Shown here: positions 759 to 62,228 of the stretch, piece by piece | How positions within the stretch are numbered: the stretch's first letter is position 1 | How the letters are laid out: every line of letters begins with the position of its first letter | Origin: Naegleria gruberi | Taxonomy: Eukaryota | Assembly: GCA_000004985.1 (NCBI GenBank) | Contig: GG738901.1 | Strand: one strand, 5' to 3' | Length of the DNA: 64,000 nucleotides | The notes under the pieces: generated by a model | What the model was told of the DNA's origin: nothing | The model's database searches: none | What the model saw: the letters and a program-made list of their open reading frames with translations, nothing else | Translations under genes and position numbers: made by a program

Positions 759-880
759 TGGCTACGGCCATATCACGATGAATGCACCTCATCCAGTCCG
801 ATTTGAGAAGTTAAGCATCGTCGAGCCACATCAGTACTGAGGTTGGAGACAACTTGGGAACCTGTGGTGCTGTAGTCTTT
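759..880 (+). rRNA. 5S ribosomal RNA, copy 1
   Basis: About 120 nt, ...GGCTACGGCCATATCACGATGAATGCACCTCATCC(A)GTCCGATTTGAGAAGTTAAGCATCGTCGAGCC...GGGAACCTGTGGTGCTGTAGTCTTTT. It matches the universal 5S core (CGGCCATA...CCCGTCCGAT.TG.GAAGTTAAGC...GGGA.ACC..GGGAA.CC.GGTGCTGTAG) and ends in a T-run typical of a Pol III terminator. The ends are approximate to within about 5 nt. Confidence 0.85.
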
Positions 881-899
881 TGCATTTTACCATCCATCT

Positions 900-962
900 T
901 CTATTTTTTAACAGAACGAGAAATCATACCAGATGAATCCTCACAGTAAAAAATGGAGAAGG
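900..962 (-). repeat. Short conserved element (~60 nt), copy 1
   Basis: Its reverse complement, TTGCCATCCTTCTCCATTTTTTACTGTGAGGATTCATCTGGTATGATTTCTCGTTCTGTT, matches 57712-57772 (+) at about 85%. Confidence 0.6.
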
Positions 963-1411
963 ATGGCAATACTGGATTCTTACTAAAACAGAAACTCGTT
1001 AATAATTCAATAATGTTGAAATGAAGTTTCAATTTCGAATTATAAGAATATATGAAACCAAAATTTGCACCAAGCAATACAGCTTGCCAAATGTTCAATA
1101 AATACAATTGGTCCAACCTTTTCAATTCTTCAACAAAACCTTACTGAACCAACAAGATTCTGTCTTCGTTGCCTTCACTGTTCATACAGTCAAAGACTGT
1201 AGCGGGATTGTTGCCATATTCCTGGCAGGCTTCCCGTCCAAAATAATAATTGAAATGTTATATGGCCTTAATATTTATTTATCCAAGTGTGCAATTATAA
1301 ACTTAATCAAGGAACATATGAGGATACTAAGGAAGAATGTAACAGAAATAGTGACATGAAACTCATTTATTTCATAATGTTTCAAAAGAATTGTTTTCCC
1401 GAATTATTCCA

Positions 1412-2528
1412 TTAATTTAATTTAAACATTCCTTGAATTTCCTTGGCAGAGTAGGCTCCTTCTAAAATCTTCTTCTCCTCTTCAGTCAATTGAATTTCCA
1501 ATGCTTGAACATTGAGCTCAACATTAACAGCCTTTGTTGCACCAATTACTGGACTTACAACTCCAGGCTTGGAAAGCAACCAAGCAAGTGCAATTTGAGC
1601 TGGAGAAACGTTTCTCTTCTTGGCAATTTCTGAAACTTTTCTCAAAGTTTCCTTATCACCTTCAGTCAAATTGCCCTTAAATATGGTTTGAACAATATCA
1701 CTATTTTGTCTCTTGGAACCATTTTCAGCAGTTTCGGTTGCATTCTCCTCAGCATTGACAAAATCATGAGCGCGAGCTAACATTCCATTAGAAAGTGGTC
1801 CCCAAGGAGTGAGTGAAACTCCTTGATCAACACACAATGGATTCATTTCTCTCTCCTCTTCTCTATAGATGAGATTGTAGAGATTTTGCATGGAAATGAA
1901 TTTAGTCAATCCCTTCTTCTCAGCATAATGTTGAGCTTTGGCAAATTGCCAAGCAAACATAGTAGAGGCACCAATGTATCTGACCTTGCCAGATTTAACC
2001 AAATCATGGAGAGCTTCCATGGTTTCTTCAATTGGTGTTTGTTCATCCCAACGATGGACAATGTACAAATCAATGTCTGTTTCAATTATTCATTTCAAAT
2101 CACAAGAAGAAATTCAGAAAAAACTTACAATCAAGACCCAATCTTTGCAATGAATCATCAACTGCATGCATAATGTGCTTTCTGGAAAGACCCATGGTAT
2201 TTGGTTTGCCTTGATTACCAACCATAATGAGCTTTTGTTCACCAGAATGATCCAATGGTCCACAAACTTTGGTTGCAACCACAATTTCCTCTCTTGGAAT
2301 GTTGAATTCCTTAATGAACTTGCCCAAAATTCTCTCACTTTCACCATTAGAATACATATCAGCAGTATCAAAGAAATTAATGCCCAAATCCCATGCCTTC
2401 TTCAAAATTCTTAATGATTCCTCTTCTTCCAAAACCCAAGGAATCCACTTGGAAGATCCAAAGCTCATGCAACCCAAACAAAGTTGAGAAACCTTCAAAC
2501 CACTTTCACCCAAATTGACGTATTTCAT
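1412..2528 (-). CDS. Aldo-keto reductase (aryl-alcohol dehydrogenase / Kv-beta-like), 2 exons
   Basis: Exon 1 (2528..2131) has MKYVNLGESGLKVSQLCLGCMSFG...FFDTADMYSNGESERILG...LGLD. A GTAAGT donor follows. The intron spans about 2077-2130. Exon 2 (2076..1412) has YIDLYIVHRWDEQTP...KVRYIGAS..., so the spliced junction LGLDYIDLYIVH is the classic AKR motif. Confidence 0.85.
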
Positions 2529-4194: not shown

Positions 4195-4327
4195 CTAAAC
4201 AATAAATTGAATGAGCAATGGTTGTTTTGAACAATGTTTTTAGGCGACCTAACTACTAATCTTTCACAGTAGATTAAGATTGCAGAACGATTTATATGAT
4301 TTATATTACGAAACTTACTTACATGGA

Positions 4328-4449
4328 TGGCTACGGCCATATCACGATGAATGCACCTCATCCCGTCCGATTTGAGAAGTTAAGCATCGTCGAGCCACAT
4401 CAGTACTGAGGTTGGAGACAACTTGGGAACCTGTGGTGCTGTAGTCTTT
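4328..4449 (+). rRNA. 5S ribosomal RNA, copy 2
   Basis: Near-identical to copy 1 (I see one substitution, CCCGTCC here against CCAGTCC in copy 1). Same orientation, followed by CTTTTCTTTTT. The flanks are unrelated, so each 5S is a discrete unit. Confidence 0.85.
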
Positions 4450-54828: not shown

Positions 54829-56604
54829 TTATTGCTTTAATAAATATTTTTGTAAAAAGGAAATAACTCTTTCCTCAAATTCATCCTTTAAATGTCTGTG
54901 AATACAAGAATGAGGAGCATCTTCTACAATCCAGTACTCAATTGGTCCACTAGCTAAAGAAGAGAGGATTTGACTATGCTTGAAATCAACAACCTTATCT
55001 GTTTTGGAGTGCATCAATAGTAATGGTTTACTCATTTCCCTCATTGCATCAGATGCATGGTATGGATTAACAGAGAAGTCGCACATTCTCCAATTAACCA
55101 ATACTGACACACCACGAATTAACAATTCAGGAATGAATTTACCGTAACTTTCAATGATACCAGCAAACAAACTTGGTAACTGATGGGACCATCCATTCTT
55201 ATAAAGAGCTGACTCTAATACATCCTTAATTTGAAGAGTTCTTTCAGCAAATGGATTTTCAGCAATAATTGCCTTAATTCTTGGATCTTGAGAAGCGGCA
55301 ACAATTGAAGAAGCGGCACCAGTTGAGCTTCCAAATGCAACAACTTCTACATCTGGAACTATTCCTTCAAGATAATCAATTGCTCCCATTACACCCATCC
55401 ATTCACGGTATCCCAATGAACACCCTTCATCGCCATCACTAACTCCATGATTCAACATATCAAATAATAATACATGAACTCCTAATTTGTGAATGTAAGG
55501 TAAATGCTCTAAAACGTCTCTTCTGTCATAAAAGGCCCCATGAACAATGACGACAGCCTTTTTGGAATTCTTATCATTGGCCTCTACATACCATCCTCTC
55601 AACATCTTATTCTTCTCATATAGAGATGAGAATGAAATATTCTTATATTCCAAACCAAAATCAATGAGAGGATCATTCTTATGTGGTAACGCTTCAATAT
55701 AATCAACCAACCTGTCACGATGATTACCCTTCATATATGAAACATGATCCATAGTAGCAAATGGTGGATGAATATCGTGGTCAACAGGGGTTTCCTTCTT
55801 TTCTTCATTATTCTTCAGTAAATTGAATCTTGAAACATCAATCTTCAATCCTGCCTTTCTATTAAAACTTTCTCCATTATCATCAGTATTACTTGTAATG
55901 GTATTATCAGGGAAAGTTACCAAAGTCTCTGGAATGTTTGCTGTATGAACCAATTTTCTATACAAAGTTGCATCTTCGTGAAGTAAATGGTGTTTAGCAG
56001 AAACAGAGACATAGGCAGCAGGGTGCATGAATAAATTAGGTAAAACAAATGTAACAATGGCTGCAAATGTGATAAATCCAAGAATATTCAGAGCTGCACA
56101 TGTTACTATAAATTTGATAATCATTGATGTCTTTCTTGTAACTGGCTTCTTTACAATAATTCTTGATTTCTTTGAGAGTAATTGGTTGAGTATTCTTTTT
56201 GCCTTTGCTCTCTTATTTTCCTTCTCAACAATTGGAGTTAGGTCAGCTAAGGATGATGGTGAGTTAATGGAAATAGAGGAAACTCTATTTCTAGTAAGGT
56301 TATTAGTATCCAAAGTAATTGGAATCTTGTTCAAATTCACTCTAGCATGCATATCTCTTTCATGAATTGAATTAGTATCCAATGATTTTTTTGGTTGAAC
56401 AACGTTGACTGATTTTGTAAAGTATTGATTCAAATCTTCATGACTCCAACAAGAAGAAATTGTTGAAGAAGGTTTCAAAGTAGAACCAGCACCGCCTCCA
56501 ACAGTATCAAGACTCGCCATAGACGAGGCAATAGGAGTGGAAATAATAAATAGCTCGGAAGACATATTTACAAAAGGTAATTTTACAAATCTAGCGTTTA
56601 GCAA
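54829..56604 (-). CDS. Alpha/beta-hydrolase fold protein, membrane-anchored
   Basis: Has an internal TM helix (TCAALNILGFITFAAIVTFVLP). The hydrolase core is VVIVHGAFYDRRD...VVAFGSSTGAASS (GxSxG nucleophile elbow)...D...H. Its stop is 10 nt from the stop of the convergent calpain gene. Confidence 0.6.
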   Translation of the reverse strand: MLNARFVKLPFVNMSSELFIISTPIASSMASLDTVGGGAGSTLKPSSTISSCWSHEDLNQYFTKSVNVVQPKKSLDTNSIHERDMHARVNLNKIPITLDTNNLTRNRVSSISINSPSSLADLTPIVEKENKRAKAKRILNQLLSKKSRIIVKKPVTRKTSMIIKFIVTCAALNILGFITFAAIVTFVLPNLFMHPAAYVSVSAKHHLLHEDATLYRKLVHTANIPETLVTFPDNTITSNTDDNGESFNRKAGLKIDVSRFNLLKNNEEKKETPVDHDIHPPFATMDHVSYMKGNHRDRLVDYIEALPHKNDPLIDFGLEYKNISFSSLYEKNKMLRGWYVEANDKNSKKAVVIVHGAFYDRRDVLEHLPYIHKLGVHVLLFDMLNHGVSDGDEGCSLGYREWMGVMGAIDYLEGIVPDVEVVAFGSSTGAASSIVAASQDPRIKAIIAENPFAERTLQIKDVLESALYKNGWSHQLPSLFAGIIESYGKFIPELLIRGVSVLVNWRMCDFSVNPYHASDAMREMSKPLLLMHSKTDKVVDFKHSQILSSLASGPIEYWIVEDAPHSCIHRHLKDEFEERVISFLQKYLLKQ

Positions 56605-57129
56605 TATATTTACAAGTTAAAGTTTTTGGATAAACCACAATCTATTATTAATACAAAGATGACGAAAATTGTTAAAGCCCCTACAAATCTCCTCTATCTA
56701 ATAATATACAATTTTTAAATGATAACACACAATATCGATTTGCCCGTTTGTGTCTTAACGTCTTTTTTTTTTAATGTTTTGTTCTTGTGGCCCTTCATTA
56801 AGAAAAATCTCCCGCCAACAACGATCGTTTTTATGTACCATTAGCAACAGAAATAGAATTTACAACAGATTCTCAACTTGAAAGTGTTGAGGAATTGCCA
56901 AAATCACACACAGAGATTGTTAGATAGGAGAACAGAATGATGCAAAAGGAAAGAATAGCGAAAATGGTTAGCATCAACCATTGATGTTGTAAAATGCTAA
57001 GTGAATGTATCATAGTAAGAGAGATTTGCTTCCCAAAGAGTGATATCTTTTATTTGATATATTCACATTCATCAGAAACAGTTCACAAACCCAATAGTTA
57101 GAGAAGAGATTATTGTAATCTTCTTTGTA

Positions 57130-57420
57130 TTGATGAACTTTGGGCATTACAGAAAAAAAATGCAATTATTTCTCAAACTCCTTTCGGGAAGGACCCTCAC
57201 TGTCGAGTTTGAATCGAGTGATTTGGTGGAAGATGTAAAGAAACAAATTGCAAATTTATTAAATGATGATAAACTTACTTCGGAGAAATTGAGTTTATTT
57301 TTTCAAAACAATGAAATGGAGGATGGAAGGGTGATTTCGGATTATAATATTCAGAAAGAACTCAATTCTTTTGTGGTTAAATTAAAAACAAATGCAGGAT
57401 TCAAAGATTATAAATTTTAA
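57130..57420 (+). CDS. Divergent ubiquitin-like (UBL) protein, no C-terminal Gly-Gly
   Basis: [34 protein letters not shown]...[31 protein letters not shown] aligns by eye with ubiquitin ([30 protein letters not shown]...[34 protein letters not shown]). It ends ...NAGFKDYKF. The true start may be the internal MQLF at 57160. Confidence 0.6.
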   Translation: [96 protein letters not shown]

Positions 57421-57711
57421 TTTTTTAATTTTTTTGTAATTGACCATTTTTGGAAGTAAATTTTTTTCTTCAGGTTCAATAATTTCAAGTACTTTATTTT
57501 CATTAAAAACAACACAAGACCATAATTTCTGTACTGTTTTACCAACCAATCTCAATTGTTTTTAAGGAGAGTTTGATTTGCACCGATTGGTTTCTTCATA
57601 CTTACCTTGAAGGACATTTCAGTGATCATGCAGACTGAAATGTGACTCTGGAAACTCTCCTCCTTGCACTCTGAGGATGAGTCCAGAATTTGGTCAATGA
57701 TCAAAGTGATT

Positions 57712-57775
57712 GTTGCCCTCCTTCTCAATTTTTTTCCTGTGAGGACTCATCTGGTATGATTTCTCGCTCTATTCA
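57712..57775 (+). repeat. Short conserved element (~60 nt), copy 2
   Basis: TTGCCCTCCTTCTCAATTTTTTTCCTGTGAGGACTCATCTGGTATGATTTCTCGCTCTATT. It is paired with the 900-962 (-) copy and sits immediately downstream of a structured inverted-repeat region at 57560-57665. Confidence 0.6.
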
Positions 57776-57872
57776 GTAATTGAAACTTTAGGTCATTAAC
57801 TCTGATATTTAATCTATCAATCAAGAAATATCAGATTTGCATTTGAAAGGTTGAAAGTGTTAATACTCCAAT

Positions 57873-59312
57873 TTATTTCTTAATATAATATTGAGAATCG
57901 GAAGAGTTTGCTGATGGCACTGGTGGATTATATGTTCTGGAAAAGAATGTTCCATCGACAGTGTTAATTACTTGTTGAAAGATTGTTCCCTGAGTGAGAA
58001 CATTTTTCTTAGAAAGACATGAGAGGCAATACTCTAACATGTGATTTGGAATGTTTGGTTTTGGAGAGTGTTTGAATAGGTATTTGGTTAATTGTTTCTT
58101 TTTCAAATCAATTTTGGTGTCTTCCTGATTAAACCAATCAGTGTCTCCTTGAACAATGATTCTTCTTCTGGCCTGTGTTTCCAATTCAATTGATCCATCA
58201 TCATGAGTTGTTGATTCCTTGTGGAGGAGTAATGATTGTTCCTCACTACTTCTTCCTCTACTTATCAATGTGGCATTATCCCCAGAACAGACTAAAATAT
58301 ATGAGGCACTATTGGTCCTACTTGTTCTGATATATTCCAGTGCGTCCTTGTACTTTTCACATTTTTCCATGACTTCTCTGAGAAGAAATTCAGTATTCCA
58401 AAATGCAAGAATGGTTCCAAACCAGCTTGCAACATCACCTAAAAATCCCTCCTCAACTGTTCTCAAGCTGTAGGAGAATGAGTAACTACTCCTTTGTGTG
58501 AATTGTGAAAATCTTAAACCATTAGAAACGCCAACCAGTGGTAAAAAGGTAGTTGTTTTGAATATTAATCTACCATCCTTAATAAAATCAATATCCACTG
58601 TCAATAATCTCAATATCTTGGCTAAATTGTGTTCATAATTACTATGTCTCAATTGAAAAACACCATCTTCATTAATTTCACTAAATGCCACACTGCTATT
58701 CACACCAAAATCATTATACGAAATATTAAACTGATAAATTAAATCATAAGTTAACCCATATCTATTTGTAATATCAGCAATTCCCCACATTTCTTGCTCC
58801 AAATCATCAGGTGTGTAAATTTGTGAAATAATATCAGTCATACTAGGTGCAAACGAATCAGAATCGTCTTGATATACATTTGTTAGATATTTTGCTAAAA
58901 GTTTCAATGGTTCAATCATATCCATCACAATATGTTTCCATCTCTTTTTAGCATCCATATTTAAATTAACAACATATTTAGGAATAGGTTTAAAATAATC
59001 AACATGTTGTAAATAGTCAACATTCGGCTGGTCTTGTTGATTGATATGTTCCTCTATTTCTTCTTTTTGTTTGTTTTTTAATGTCGCTTTAGATGATTGG
59101 TTTTGTTTTGTCTCAACTTGTTTTACCAGATGAATAGTTTCGTATTCTTCTTCATCTTGTTTAGTTTCGTTACTTGCTCGGAGTGGATCACTTGTTGTAT
59201 GTAACGTTTCCGAATCATCATGATCTTCAGCAGAACCAACATTCATGAGTGGATGAGAGTTTGTTGTTTGTTCTTCCATTTTTTTGATTGTAATTTTCGT
59301 GTTTCCTGTCAT
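57873..59312 (-). CDS. Hypothetical protein (479 aa), acidic N-terminus
   Basis: Uninterrupted ORF with coding-like composition. No recognised motif. Confidence 0.45.
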   Translation of the reverse strand: MTGNTKITIKKMEEQTTNSHPLMNVGSAEDHDDSETLHTTSDPLRASNETKQDEEEYETIHLVKQVETKQNQSSKATLKNKQKEEIEEHINQQDQPNVDYLQHVDYFKPIPKYVVNLNMDAKKRWKHIVMDMIEPLKLLAKYLTNVYQDDSDSFAPSMTDIISQIYTPDDLEQEMWGIADITNRYGLTYDLIYQFNISYNDFGVNSSVAFSEINEDGVFQLRHSNYEHNLAKILRLLTVDIDFIKDGRLIFKTTTFLPLVGVSNGLRFSQFTQRSSYSFSYSLRTVEEGFLGDVASWFGTILAFWNTEFLLREVMEKCEKYKDALEYIRTSRTNSASYILVCSGDNATLISRGRSSEEQSLLLHKESTTHDDGSIELETQARRRIIVQGDTDWFNQEDTKIDLKKKQLTKYLFKHSPKPNIPNHMLEYCLSCLSKKNVLTQGTIFQQVINTVDGTFFSRTYNPPVPSANSSDSQYYIKK

Positions 59313-59441
59313 TGGATACTTTCTAATCTAAAAACTTATTCGGACATTTTCCTCTCAAATGATTCGTCCAAAACAACAAAAAGAAACATATTTGAAATAA
59401 TAACAAATTGAAAAACTCAAATTATTTGAAATGTTGTAAGT

Positions 59442-62228
59442 TTAATGAAGAGAAAAACCTTGTGAACCATATCGAATAGCTTTTCCAAATCTTTCTTTCA
59501 TAATTTCCTTTGATTCATATGGTGGAATATCAATTCTATTGAGACATGTGTGAGCAACAGGTAAATGATCAGTCGACACATTTCTTAATAAACATAAAGT
59601 GAATGGAGGTGTCAATCCTTCAAATCCATCACTTGGTAAACATGATGTTCCTGTTGAAAATTGTAAAAGTTGAGCAATTTGTGTTTGCGAATATCCTTCA
59701 ATCATTTCCCAGAAATATTGAACTGTTGGATGATCTGTATCAAATCCTCCTTCATATGAAATATTGTCCTTCCATTGGGAAATTGAAACTTCCCTACTAC
59801 CACACAATAAAAGTTCCAATTCAGTCTCGCTAAATATAGTTAAAAATTCTGGAGGTAACACTTCGTAAATTCCTTCAAGCATTTTTTCGACTTGTGGTCG
59901 AACTGATTCTACCAGTTTCCATTTGGAATATGCCTCAACAAATTCATGTTTGTTTCCATCATTTACTTCAATTTCTGCTCCATTAAAACAAAGTTCGTAA
60001 ACATTATTCTCACCAAAATCATTCAAATCGGCAGTGAAAGTCATTTCCATAATATTTTCAATATCCTCCAAGAGGAGAAGCTTTTTCAAGGAGAGGTACA
60101 TGGTTGGATCGACGGCTTCCAAATCTTCAAACATGACAGGTTTTCCAGCCATAAGTTTGAAAATTACTTTTGTGAAATGAGTATCCATAATCTTGTTATC
60201 AGAAATTGCTTTACCTATCAACTTGCCAATGAATTGGAAATATTGTAAGTGATCTCCATTGACAGCTGAAGCAGGATTTGGATGGTAGGTGTTATTAGGA
60301 CCTGTTTTGATGAAAAGTGCATTATTTGGATTGAGAATTTGTTGGGAAAGTAAATGATAAAATTCTCTTGTTACTCCACCAACATCAAATCCTTCTTCAC
60401 CAGCAAAATATACAAACATTGGCCTCAATAAATCGGCACCTTTGAGGACTGAGAAGTTTTTACAAGCATCAAATACCAATTGGTCTCTTCTGACCATTAC
60501 AACAGTTGGTTGTAATAATCCATCACCTTTGAGAGCTTTCAGCTTTTTGTAGAATAAGTCTTTTCTCGTTTCGTAATCCATCTCACGTTCATCGTCTGTA
60601 TAAATACATGAAAATGATTCTACAGCTCCAATTGGAGTCATTGATAAGGTGGAAATGGCCTTCAGTCTCTCTTCAATAGTTTGGACAGTATTTGGAACAA
60701 TGGAGAGTTCAAAATAGATATTTCTATCTGACAGATCTTGATTGTCTTTCACAAGTCTGACTTCATTATTCTTTGTAATGTAGTAAATATCCTCGATAAT
60801 ATCCACATCAGAGCCAAGACTTTCATCATCTTGTTGCTGTTTGAGATATTTAATTGTTTTTTCTATTTGATCGTCCAGAGTTTTGCACTCGTCCAAGTAC
60901 TTGTGTTTTTGAAGATCTTCAATTACCTCAGCAACTTTAGTCACTGGATAGAAAAGGATATCAACCAAGTAATTGAATAATTCTTCATAGTTCATGTAGG
61001 CAGGACGTGAAGCTCCATTTTTCAAGTTCAATGAGAAAACAGAACTAATATCAATAAATTTGACAAACATTCCCGAGGAGAAGTATAGTTTCTTTGTCTT
61101 TGCATCTACTGAAAGATTAGAAGCATCCAATATAGTTTCCTGAGGAATTGTATGAACAAGAGTTATTTCATAAGTATCATAAAATTCAAATTGTCTCTTA
61201 TCCTTATTCCAGCCAACAATATATGAAGAATCTTCATCTATTTCAAATATACAAAATTGAGTTATTCCAACTATTGGTGGATTAACCTTATTAGTTTCAG
61301 TATTGTAAGAATAAATATTTTGTGGTTGACTAATGTAAATATTTGAACCAACTTTGTAAAAGTAGTGTGAATACTCCCGACAACTATGAACTTTGATACA
61401 TTCGAGAGATGAAATATCCCACATTCTCACTGTACAATCAGCACCTGAAGTATAGAGTATACCTTCAGAATGTTCATAAAACATATCTTCTACTTTTTTA
61501 ACGTGTCCATTGAGTTTAGCAATTTTCTTTCCCGTTTTCAATTCATATACTGATATCGAGCTGTCATATCCAGAACAAAACAGGTAATCACTACTAACAG
61601 CCAAACATGTTATCCAATTTTCATTGGAATCAAATACTTGTTTACATGTTTGAGTTTCAATATCCCAAACACGAACAGTTCTATCATATGAACCAGAATA
61701 TAATAAATTATTTTTCATATCAATCTTTAGGCAAGTGACAGCTTTCGTGTGTCCTTGGAACAATTTTATGCATTCTCCTGTTTCCTTGTCCCAGCAACAA
61801 ATGTTTTTATCCAAAGAACTTGTCCATATGCGATTATTTTCAACCTTGATGCATGTAATTTTATAGAAATGTTTAAATTTCTTATAATCTTTCAATGATC
61901 TAGGTATCAATGGTTCTGTTCTTTTTTCCTTCCTCACAAAGGATCCAATAGAAGTCAATTGATATTCCTCATCCTCCAATGAATCATTACTAGTATCCTG
62001 CTGTACATTATCGAATGAAGTTCTCATCGTCGACGACTCTGATGACTGTGTTTTAGTACTATCCGATAAATTACTAGTGAATGCTCGCAGTGTTGCTGAT
62101 GTGGTTGGTGTGAGTGTTGTTGGTTTGAAGAGTTTTAGAAGAAAATTCTTCTTTTGTCTCACTTCGGGTGATGATCCCTCCATCATTTCTGCAAAATCAT
62201 TAAAAACTTGAATGTCTAATAGATTCAA
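59442..62228 (-). CDS. HECT-type E3 ubiquitin ligase with N-terminal WD40 repeats
   Basis: The N-terminal half has WD40 units (ICCWDKETGECIKLFQGHTKAVTCLKI...YSGSYDRTVRVWDIETQ; TSGADCTVRMWDISS). The C-terminus has a HECT domain with the catalytic Cys (LPVAHTCLNRIDIPPYESKEIMKERFGKAIRYGSQGFSLH). A 5' exon may lie upstream at about 62340-62400, but I could not make the phases fit. Confidence 0.75.
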   Translation of the reverse strand: MNLLDIQVFNDFAEMMEGSSPEVRQKKNFLLKLFKPTTLTPTTSATLRAFTSNLSDSTKTQSSESSTMRTSFDNVQQDTSNDSLEDEEYQLTSIGSFVRKEKRTEPLIPRSLKDYKKFKHFYKITCIKVENNRIWTSSLDKNICCWDKETGECIKLFQGHTKAVTCLKIDMKNNLLYSGSYDRTVRVWDIETQTCKQVFDSNENWITCLAVSSDYLFCSGYDSSISVYELKTGKKIAKLNGHVKKVEDMFYEHSEGILYTSGADCTVRMWDISSLECIKVHSCREYSHYFYKVGSNIYISQPQNIYSYNTETNKVNPPIVGITQFCIFEIDEDSSYIVGWNKDKRQFEFYDTYEITLVHTIPQETILDASNLSVDAKTKKLYFSSGMFVKFIDISSVFSLNLKNGASRPAYMNYEELFNYLVDILFYPVTKVAEVIEDLQKHKYLDECKTLDDQIEKTIKYLKQQQDDESLGSDVDIIEDIYYITKNNEVRLVKDNQDLSDRNIYFELSIVPNTVQTIEERLKAISTLSMTPIGAVESFSCIYTDDEREMDYETRKDLFYKKLKALKGDGLLQPTVVMVRRDQLVFDACKNFSVLKGADLLRPMFVYFAGEEGFDVGGVTREFYHLLSQQILNPNNALFIKTGPNNTYHPNPASAVNGDHLQYFQFIGKLIGKAISDNKIMDTHFTKVIFKLMAGKPVMFEDLEAVDPTMYLSLKKLLLLEDIENIMEMTFTADLNDFGENNVYELCFNGAEIEVNDGNKHEFVEAYSKWKLVESVRPQVEKMLEGIYEVLPPEFLTIFSETELELLLCGSREVSISQWKDNISYEGGFDTDHPTVQYFWEMIEGYSQTQIAQLLQFSTGTSCLPSDGFEGLTPPFTLCLLRNVSTDHLPVAHTCLNRIDIPPYESKEIMKERFGKAIRYGSQGFSLH

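Follow-up and report, generated by a model that had tools for sequence, protein, structure and literature searches.

We report here that nucleotides 57598-57767 on the plus strand of a stretch of Naegleria gruberi DNA very probably represent a full-length gene for U1 small nuclear RNA (snRNA). The stretch, which we refer to as the window, comprises 64,000 nucleotides of contig GG738901.1 (assembly GCA_000004985.1). It has a GC content of 33.5%, is gene-dense, and carries long ORFs in the standard code. The U1 gene is 170 nt long (57598-57767, +), and thus falls in the same length class as the canonical U1 of about 165 nt. An initial annotation, made from the letters of the sequence, had described a structured non-coding segment at 57560-57775. 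This description was borne out by our analysis: the segment contains the U1 gene, its RNA folds far more stably than shuffled sequences (z = -3.72), and no ORF longer than 58 aa overlaps it.

Identification of the U1 gene

An Infernal/Rfam scan had been proposed as a check on the segment. It was run, and at an E-value threshold it returned a covariance-model hit to U1 snRNA. The match to RF00003, the Rfam U1 family, was located at 57598-57767, spanned model positions 1-166 of 166, and scored 50.5 bits. When the segment 57350-57950 was searched with E-value thresholds, the match had E = 1.1e-11, and all other matches there had E > 1. Over the 64-kb window it had E = 1.1e-9 and was the sole non-5S match at E <= 0.1. 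The genome of N. gruberi is about 41 Mb in size, and if the E-value is scaled linearly from the window to this genome, it becomes about 7e-7.

At gathering thresholds, the Rfam scan of the whole window reported two 5S genes only, and E-value thresholds were needed for U1 to appear. The U1 match did not reach the RF00003 gathering threshold (50.5 vs 69.5 bits), and therefore the locus is not an automatic member of RF00003 under Rfam's own rule. The score falls short because the region of stem-loops 2 and 3 (SL2 and SL3) is AT-rich and divergent; this part of the RF00003 alignment had a low posterior probability. Along the same alignment, the U1 motifs followed one another in canonical order and spacing, from the 5' end through SL1, SL2, the third hairpin and the Sm site to SL4. 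With this E-value and agreement at one motif after another, the U1 identity is hardly in doubt. A tRNA reading of the segment was also considered and dropped, since ARAGORN found no tRNA or tRNA-derived element anywhere in the window.

Secondary structure and functional motifs

Folding without family information gave the U1 architecture, that is, a four-way junction, a free 5' end, a free Sm site, and a 3' hairpin. The 170-nt U1 had a minimum free energy (MFE) of -52.5 kcal/mol (z = -3.72), a stability that no sequence reached among 200 dinucleotide shuffles. In the MFE structure, nt 1-11 were unpaired, hairpins formed at nt 17-46, 50-90, and 95-121, nt 128-141 were again unpaired, and the 3' hairpin occupied nt 142-170. 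Helix H (nt 12-16 with 123-127) enclosed the three hairpins in both the MFE and the centroid structures, and the Rfam structure line agreed. The features of the gene and its flanks are listed below, with the evidence for each in brackets.

57565-57574 / 57652-57661, +: arms AGGAGAGTTT / AAACTCTCCT of the outer inverted repeat (letters; chance frequency)
57598-57607, +: 5' splice-site recognition sequence AUACUUACCU, U1 nt 1-10 (10/10 positions match the Rfam consensus; unpaired in the MFE structure)
57609-57613, +: 5' strand of helix H, GAAGG, whose partner CCUUC lies at 57720-57724; closes the four-way junction (MFE, Rfam structure line)
57614-57643, +: stem-loop 1 (SL1), with a 10-bp stem and the 10-nt loop GAUCAUGCAG at 57624-57633 (Rfam alignment, MFE)
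57647-57687, +: stem-loop 2, with the loop CUUGCACUCU at 57663-57672 (Rfam alignment, MFE)
57692-57718, +: stem-loop 3, the most divergent part, with the lowest-confidence Rfam alignment (Rfam alignment, MFE)
57720-57724, +: 3' strand of helix H, CCUUC (MFE)
57727-57735, +: Sm-protein site AAUUUUUUU, inside single-stranded 57725-57738 (Rfam alignment, MFE)
57739-57767, +: 3' terminal stem-loop (SL4), 7 bp + 4 bp, loop CUGGU (Rfam alignment, MFE)
57768-57784, +: U1 3' flank, alignable with a second copy, 12/17 identical (alignment)

The SL1 loop GAUCAUGCAG matched the Rfam consensus GAUCAaGAAG at 8 of 10 positions. SL2 has a bulged stem of 13 bp (6 + 7 bp), and its loop CUUGCACUCU holds UUGCAC, with the AUUGCAC motif of the Rfam consensus AUUGCACU aligned to it. 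To judge by their sequences, the SL1 loop, which is of the GAUCACGAAG type, corresponds to the U1-70K-binding loop, and UUGCAC in the SL2 loop is the motif of the U1A-binding loop. The Sm site AAUUUUUUU aligned with high posterior probability to AAUUUgUGg of the Rfam consensus and was unpaired in the MFE structure. It is a variant of the type sought (RAU4-6GR), with U7 followed by CC and without the usual G. Downstream of the gene, the flank at 57768-57784 may be part of the precursor or of a region for 3'-end formation.

The sequence facts given in the initial annotation were all found, at slightly shifted positions. Its inner perfect 9-bp stem with a 10-nt loop is real and is SL1 of U1: CATTTCAGT at 57615-57623 pairs with ACTGAAATG at 57634-57642 around the loop GATCATGCAG at 57624-57633, and an extra A57614-T57643 pair lengthens the stem to 10 bp. 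An outer 10-bp stem had been described as well. Here the repeat is present, but it is not a structural element of the RNA. Counted from U1 +1, the 5' arm (57565-57574) occupies -33 to -24, and since it is 24-33 nt upstream of the RNA 5' end, the outer stem cannot form in the transcript; the 3' arm (57652-57661) belongs to the 5' strand of SL2, which already has its pairing partner inside U1. Perfect 10-mer inverted repeats with loops of 3-100 nt occurred 18 times in the window, compared with 22 ± 5.6 expected from first-order Markov simulations, and for arms with at least four G/C one was observed against 3.1 expected from such simulations. With its chance frequency and one arm outside the transcript, the outer stem was dropped as a genuine structure.

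A truncated U1 copy beside a 5S gene

A conserved element of about 60 nt, placed next to the structured segment, had been reported to recur at 900-962. We found this recurrence to be correct and slightly longer, with 57713-57784 matching 899-969. The element is not a separate, adjacent cis element as had been thought; it consists of U1 nt 116-170 plus the 17-nt 3' flank. Between 57713-57784 and the reverse complement of 899-969, 61/72 positions (84.7%) were identical (blastn E 1e-15), and in a self-blast of 56500-59000 this copy was the only significant match in the window. Smith-Waterman alignment gave identical limits, with a single 1-nt indel, in a T run. Identity was 49/55 (including the indel) over the RNA part at 969-916 and 12/17 over the flank part at 915-899. 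The features at this end of the window are as follows.

760-878, + and 4329-4447, +: 5S rRNA genes (Rfam gathering threshold)
899-915, -: copy of the U1 3' flank (alignment)
916-969, -: 5'-truncated U1 fragment, U1 nt 116-170, with the end of SL3, the helix H 3' strand, the Sm site, and SL4 (blastn, Smith-Waterman)

The copied stretch and the 5S gene at 760-878 (+) are convergent, and 20 nt lie between their 3' ends. The element had accordingly been tied to 5S, a link that did not hold up: the copy is a truncated U1 fragment, and the second 5S gene has no such copy. We also dropped the idea that the fragment is part of a 5S repeat unit, as similarity between the two 5S loci is confined to about -33 to about +32 and no copy of the fragment accompanies the second gene.

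A second full-length U1 gene at 899-1100 (-) was likewise dropped, since we found there no U1 by Rfam, no 5' domain, no fold, and no AGGTAAGTAT. In 700-1420, Rfam gave no U1 even at E <= 10. Alignment of U1 nt 1-115 with the flank of the fragment scored 11, compared with 11.1 ± 1.7 for shuffles, which reveals no 5' domain. AGGTAAGTAT has a single occurrence in the window, at the U1 gene. No unusual fold was detected in the 189 nt that comprise the fragment (912-969) and 130 nt upstream (z = -0.65). We further found no promoter or upstream motif shared by the U1 gene and the fragment, the best local score being 11 against 11.9 ± 1.6 for shuffles. As the copy lacks a U1 5' domain and shares no promoter with the gene, it is most likely a decayed duplicate. 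We thus consider 969-899 (-) most likely to be the decaying, 5'-truncated remnant of a duplicated U1 gene that has become a neighbour of 5S by chance. Such a defective U1 copy within 64 kb means that duplication and decay of snRNA genes occur in the N. gruberi genome. No poly(A) tract or target-site duplication was obvious at the fragment, and because genomic flank is included and poly(A) is not evident, duplication/deletion at the DNA level is favoured over retroposition of mature U1.

Some further observations were made around the 5S genes. The two genes are 3.5 kb apart and identical except at one position. Both have in common about 33 nt upstream (727-759 and 4296-4328), with ATTTATA at about -25, as well as a T-rich tail; this upstream block is a candidate Pol III promoter element here. 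The region 1100-1360, between the U1 fragment and an aldo-keto reductase gene, is GC-richer, contains an 83-aa ORF (1108-1359, +), and matches no RNA family.

Alternative explanations

In our view, 57598-57767 is very probably a working U1 gene. It is quite unlikely, in our estimate, that these positions hold a U1-derived, unexpressed pseudogene or a minor variant, with the working U1 genes located elsewhere in the genome. Such a pseudogene would fit the Rfam score under the gathering threshold, the atypical Sm site with U7 then CC, the lack of a recognisable TATA box at -30, and the finding that these 64 kb hold at least one U1 copy that is plainly defective. However, the sequence is full length with a perfect 5' end, all functional motifs are intact, and all helices form (z = -3.72). 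Low Rfam scores are, moreover, expected for a deep-branching excavate, and N. gruberi U1 was among those that needed an extra unfiltered Infernal search in a 2008 screen (PMC2396436). The segment had initially been called snoRNA- or snRNA-like. The snRNA part of this proposal proved right (U1, RF00003), and the snoRNA part did not (best E 3.7-4.8). We give hardly any credence to a box C/D or H/ACA snoRNA, or another small RNA, at this place. Weak Rfam matches to snoR26 (17 bits, E 3.7) and snoZ223 (16.3 bits, E 4.8) point in this direction, but they are at chance level and far under the gathering scores of 47 and 45, respectively. The snoR26 match rests on UUGCACU of the U1 SL2 loop, and the U1 match to the same bases is about eleven orders of magnitude more significant. 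The set of characters that would mark a box C/D snoRNA (C box RUGAUGA, D box CUGA, terminal stem, and significant covariance match) was not found in the segment.

For the repeated element, a coding function is barely conceivable, namely that it encodes the C-termini of a pair of small paralogous proteins, which would end in …CEDSSGMISRSIQ and …CEDSSGMISRSVKK directly before the stop. Each copy does contain a short ORF that ends just past the conserved block, and some of the differences fall at third codon positions. Yet 10 codons before the peptide common to both, the 1-nt indel throws the copies out of frame, the ORFs (29 and 74 aa, with non-ATG starts) otherwise have nothing in common, and the U1 3' domain explains the block fully. 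The earlier view of the region as not protein-coding was thus confirmed by the indel between the copies and the tiny non-ATG ORFs. It is also highly improbable that the copy at 899-969 (-) is functional, either as a retained Sm-site/3'-hairpin module forming the 3' end of an undescribed Sm-class RNA or as a 3'-end formation/termination element behind 5S, or that it is the trace of an ancestral 5S-U1 unit of Heterolobosea. The copy keeps an Sm-like U run and the 3' hairpin, in which two substitutions leave foldability untouched (one changes G-C to G-U, and one lies in an internal bulge). Its RNA part is less diverged (6/55) than its flank (5/17), but this difference is not significant (Fisher p = 0.12). 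The sequence upstream of the copy, however, matches no known RNA family, does not fold stably (z = -0.65), and does not resemble the U1 promoter region, and the second 5S gene has no such element, which leaves a single instance (n = 1). A decayed duplicate remains our preferred reading of this copy.

Comparison with other U1 genes

Like canonical U1 (RF00003; animals, plants, many protists), the N. gruberi RNA has the characteristic 5' end, the four-way junction, the SL1 and SL2 loops, the Sm site, and the terminal hairpin. Unlike canonical U1, it has AT-rich stems, a divergent SL3, an Sm site that reads AAU7CC without G, and a sub-threshold score.

A metagenome scan for ATACTTACCT-N12-22-GATCATGCAG returned 32 loci. 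Roughly half of them were genuine U1s of unrelated eukaryotes and the remaining loci were coincidental bacterial coding sequences; none of the 32 was close to Naegleria. Environmental eukaryotic contigs with a canonical U1 and the SL1 loop GAUCAUGCAG were L005, L007, L009, L016, L023, L025, L031, and L035, and this loop variant is therefore not specific to Naegleria. We aligned 8 environmental U1s with the Naegleria RNA by MAFFT. The alignment was good enough for SL1 covariation only, the other helices being too divergent, and for the SL1 pairs it revealed compensatory changes in 7/8. The Sm core was common to the Naegleria RNA and the 8 environmental U1s. The (A)TTGCAC motif of the SL2 loop was found in 5 of these U1s, and the other 3 had variant loops. 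The 5' end and the SL1 loop were identical in 8/8, both being fixed by the search pattern; since the U1s were chosen by a pattern containing the motif, the invariance of their 5' ends is not independent evidence.

Within the genus, U1-U6 have been reported for N. lovaniensis and N. fowleri by Liechti et al. from Infernal searches with Rfam 12.1 (PMC6125883, PMC6831594). The N. gruberi U1 resembles those RNAs in genus, RNA family, and kind of scan; it differs in that the loci syntenic to it carry no U1. As syntenic loci we used the ceramidase-like loci of N. lovaniensis (L001) and of a third Naegleria assembly, from Logan (L002), and the HECT locus of N. fowleri (L003). No U1 was found in L001, L002, or L003 by Rfam (E <= 0.001 or 0.01), and none was found in L001 and L002 by blastn and motif search either. 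The alpha/beta-hydrolase gene of N. fowleri directly neighbours the HECT gene, in divergent orientation (L003 7276-13420). The corresponding N. gruberi pair (54829-62228) is arranged in tandem, and its members are separated by 2.8 kb containing a ubiquitin-like ORF, U1, and a ceramidase-like gene. The ceramidase-like gene of N. lovaniensis (L001) lies in a different neighbourhood. The two hydrolase-HECT arrangements indicate a local inversion or insertion between N. gruberi and N. fowleri. With the gene order rearranged and the syntenic loci lacking U1, the U1 genes are not positional orthologues.

The truncated copy can be compared with two kinds of known arrangement. Truncated U1 pseudogenes and fragments are known from animal genomes. 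Like them, the N. gruberi fragment is partial, dispersed, and about 15% diverged, and it lacks the promoter and part of the RNA. Unlike them, it is 5'-truncated with 17 nt of genomic 3' flank, and no poly(A) or target-site duplication is obvious. Tandem 5S-U1 gene units have been described in a crustacean (Pelliccia et al. 2001, cited in PMC3464664). As there, U1-derived sequence lies next to a 5S gene, here within 20 nt, but the crustacean has tandem functional units and N. gruberi a single convergent pairing with a broken U1, its other 5S gene having no U1.

Proposed function and transcription

The action of the U1 snRNP, which involves 5' splice-site pairing, U1-70K, U1A, and the Sm ring, is established knowledge. 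By analogy, the unpaired AUACUUACCU would base-pair with GUAAGU-type 5' splice sites of pre-mRNAs. The SL1 loop would bind U1-70K, the SL2 loop would bind a U1A-type protein, and the single-stranded AAUUUUUUU, which separates helix H from the 3' stem-loop, would carry an Sm ring. Binding of U1 would then commit introns to the spliceosome. U1 nt 3-8 are complementary to the GTAAGT 5' splice site of one intron in the window. The aldo-keto reductase gene at 1412-2528 (-) is in two ORFs, split by an intron of about 52 nt (about 2127-2076) that reads GTAAGTTTT...AAACAG and has GTAAGT as its 5' splice site. A U1-70K homologue from N. gruberi NEG-M was used in an earlier study (PMC8211703).

The U1 gene contains an internal T7 run, and no T run is present downstream of the gene. 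Because the internal T7 would terminate Pol III and no T run follows the gene, we infer transcription by Pol II. Pol II is thus the most likely polymerase, with a promoter that would lie inside the 178 nt after the stop codon of the ubiquitin-like ORF.

Significance for annotation

In a previous screen, 'Naegleria gruberi (U1)' was among the cases that needed an unfiltered whole-genome Infernal search, and only two RNAs, both from other species, were recovered by that search (Davila Lopez et al. 2008, PMC2396436). As neither of the two rescued RNAs was from N. gruberi, its U1 was apparently missed in 2008 (PMC2396436). We found no published N. gruberi U1 sequence in the literature consulted, and the present coordinates may be the first explicit delineation of the gene. 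It is of an already known kind, and is at most an unannotated instance overlooked by threshold-based Rfam annotation. Since its score is under the gathering threshold, threshold-based pipelines will miss the gene, and the coordinates 57598-57767 can be used for annotation. As a universal part of the major spliceosome, familiar from textbooks, U1 snRNA is expected in the intron-containing Naegleria, and its presence there has little significance beyond annotation. The U1 of trypanosomatids is much reduced. Comparative work on how the spliceosome evolved in Discoba can draw on the present U1 from Heterolobosea, whose architecture is that of the canonical ~165-nt class.

Genomic surroundings of the U1 gene

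Two convergent genes, with 452 nt between them, flank the U1 gene. Its neighbours are the following.

57130-57420, +: ubiquitin-family ORF, upstream neighbour, with its stop 178 nt before U1
57873-59312, -: NAAA/acid-ceramidase-like ORF of 479 aa, downstream neighbour, with its stop codon at 57873
59442-62228, -: HECT ORF, with 100% full-length identity to the NCBI entry 'HECT domain-containing ubiquitin ligase [Naegleria gruberi]'

The segment had been described as less AT-rich than its surroundings, and our measurements agreed: the GC content was 0.38-0.40 at 57500-57800 vs 0.235-0.245 just upstream (57300-57599), and about 0.30-0.32 in the other intervals adjacent to 57500-57800.

The full-length match of the HECT ORF identifies the window as nuclear DNA of N. 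gruberi; to an N. fowleri protein, the identity of this ORF is 64%. For the ceramidase-like protein, homologues were found in N. lovaniensis (50% identity) and one Logan assembly (48%) only, and Pfam PF15508 was found on the homologues. The ceramidase-like ORF has no N. gruberi entry in a collection of 5.8 billion proteins, in which the adjacent HECT gene is present at 100%; the ceramidase-like gene may be missing from the N. gruberi annotation. Finally, a perfect 10-bp hairpin, TCTGATATTT-15 nt-AAATATCAGA, is located at 57801-57835, 34 nt past the U1 3' end and 38 nt past the stop codon of the convergent ceramidase-like gene. Hairpins of this class are at chance frequency in the window, and this one could be a 3'-end signal for U1 or for the ceramidase-like gene.
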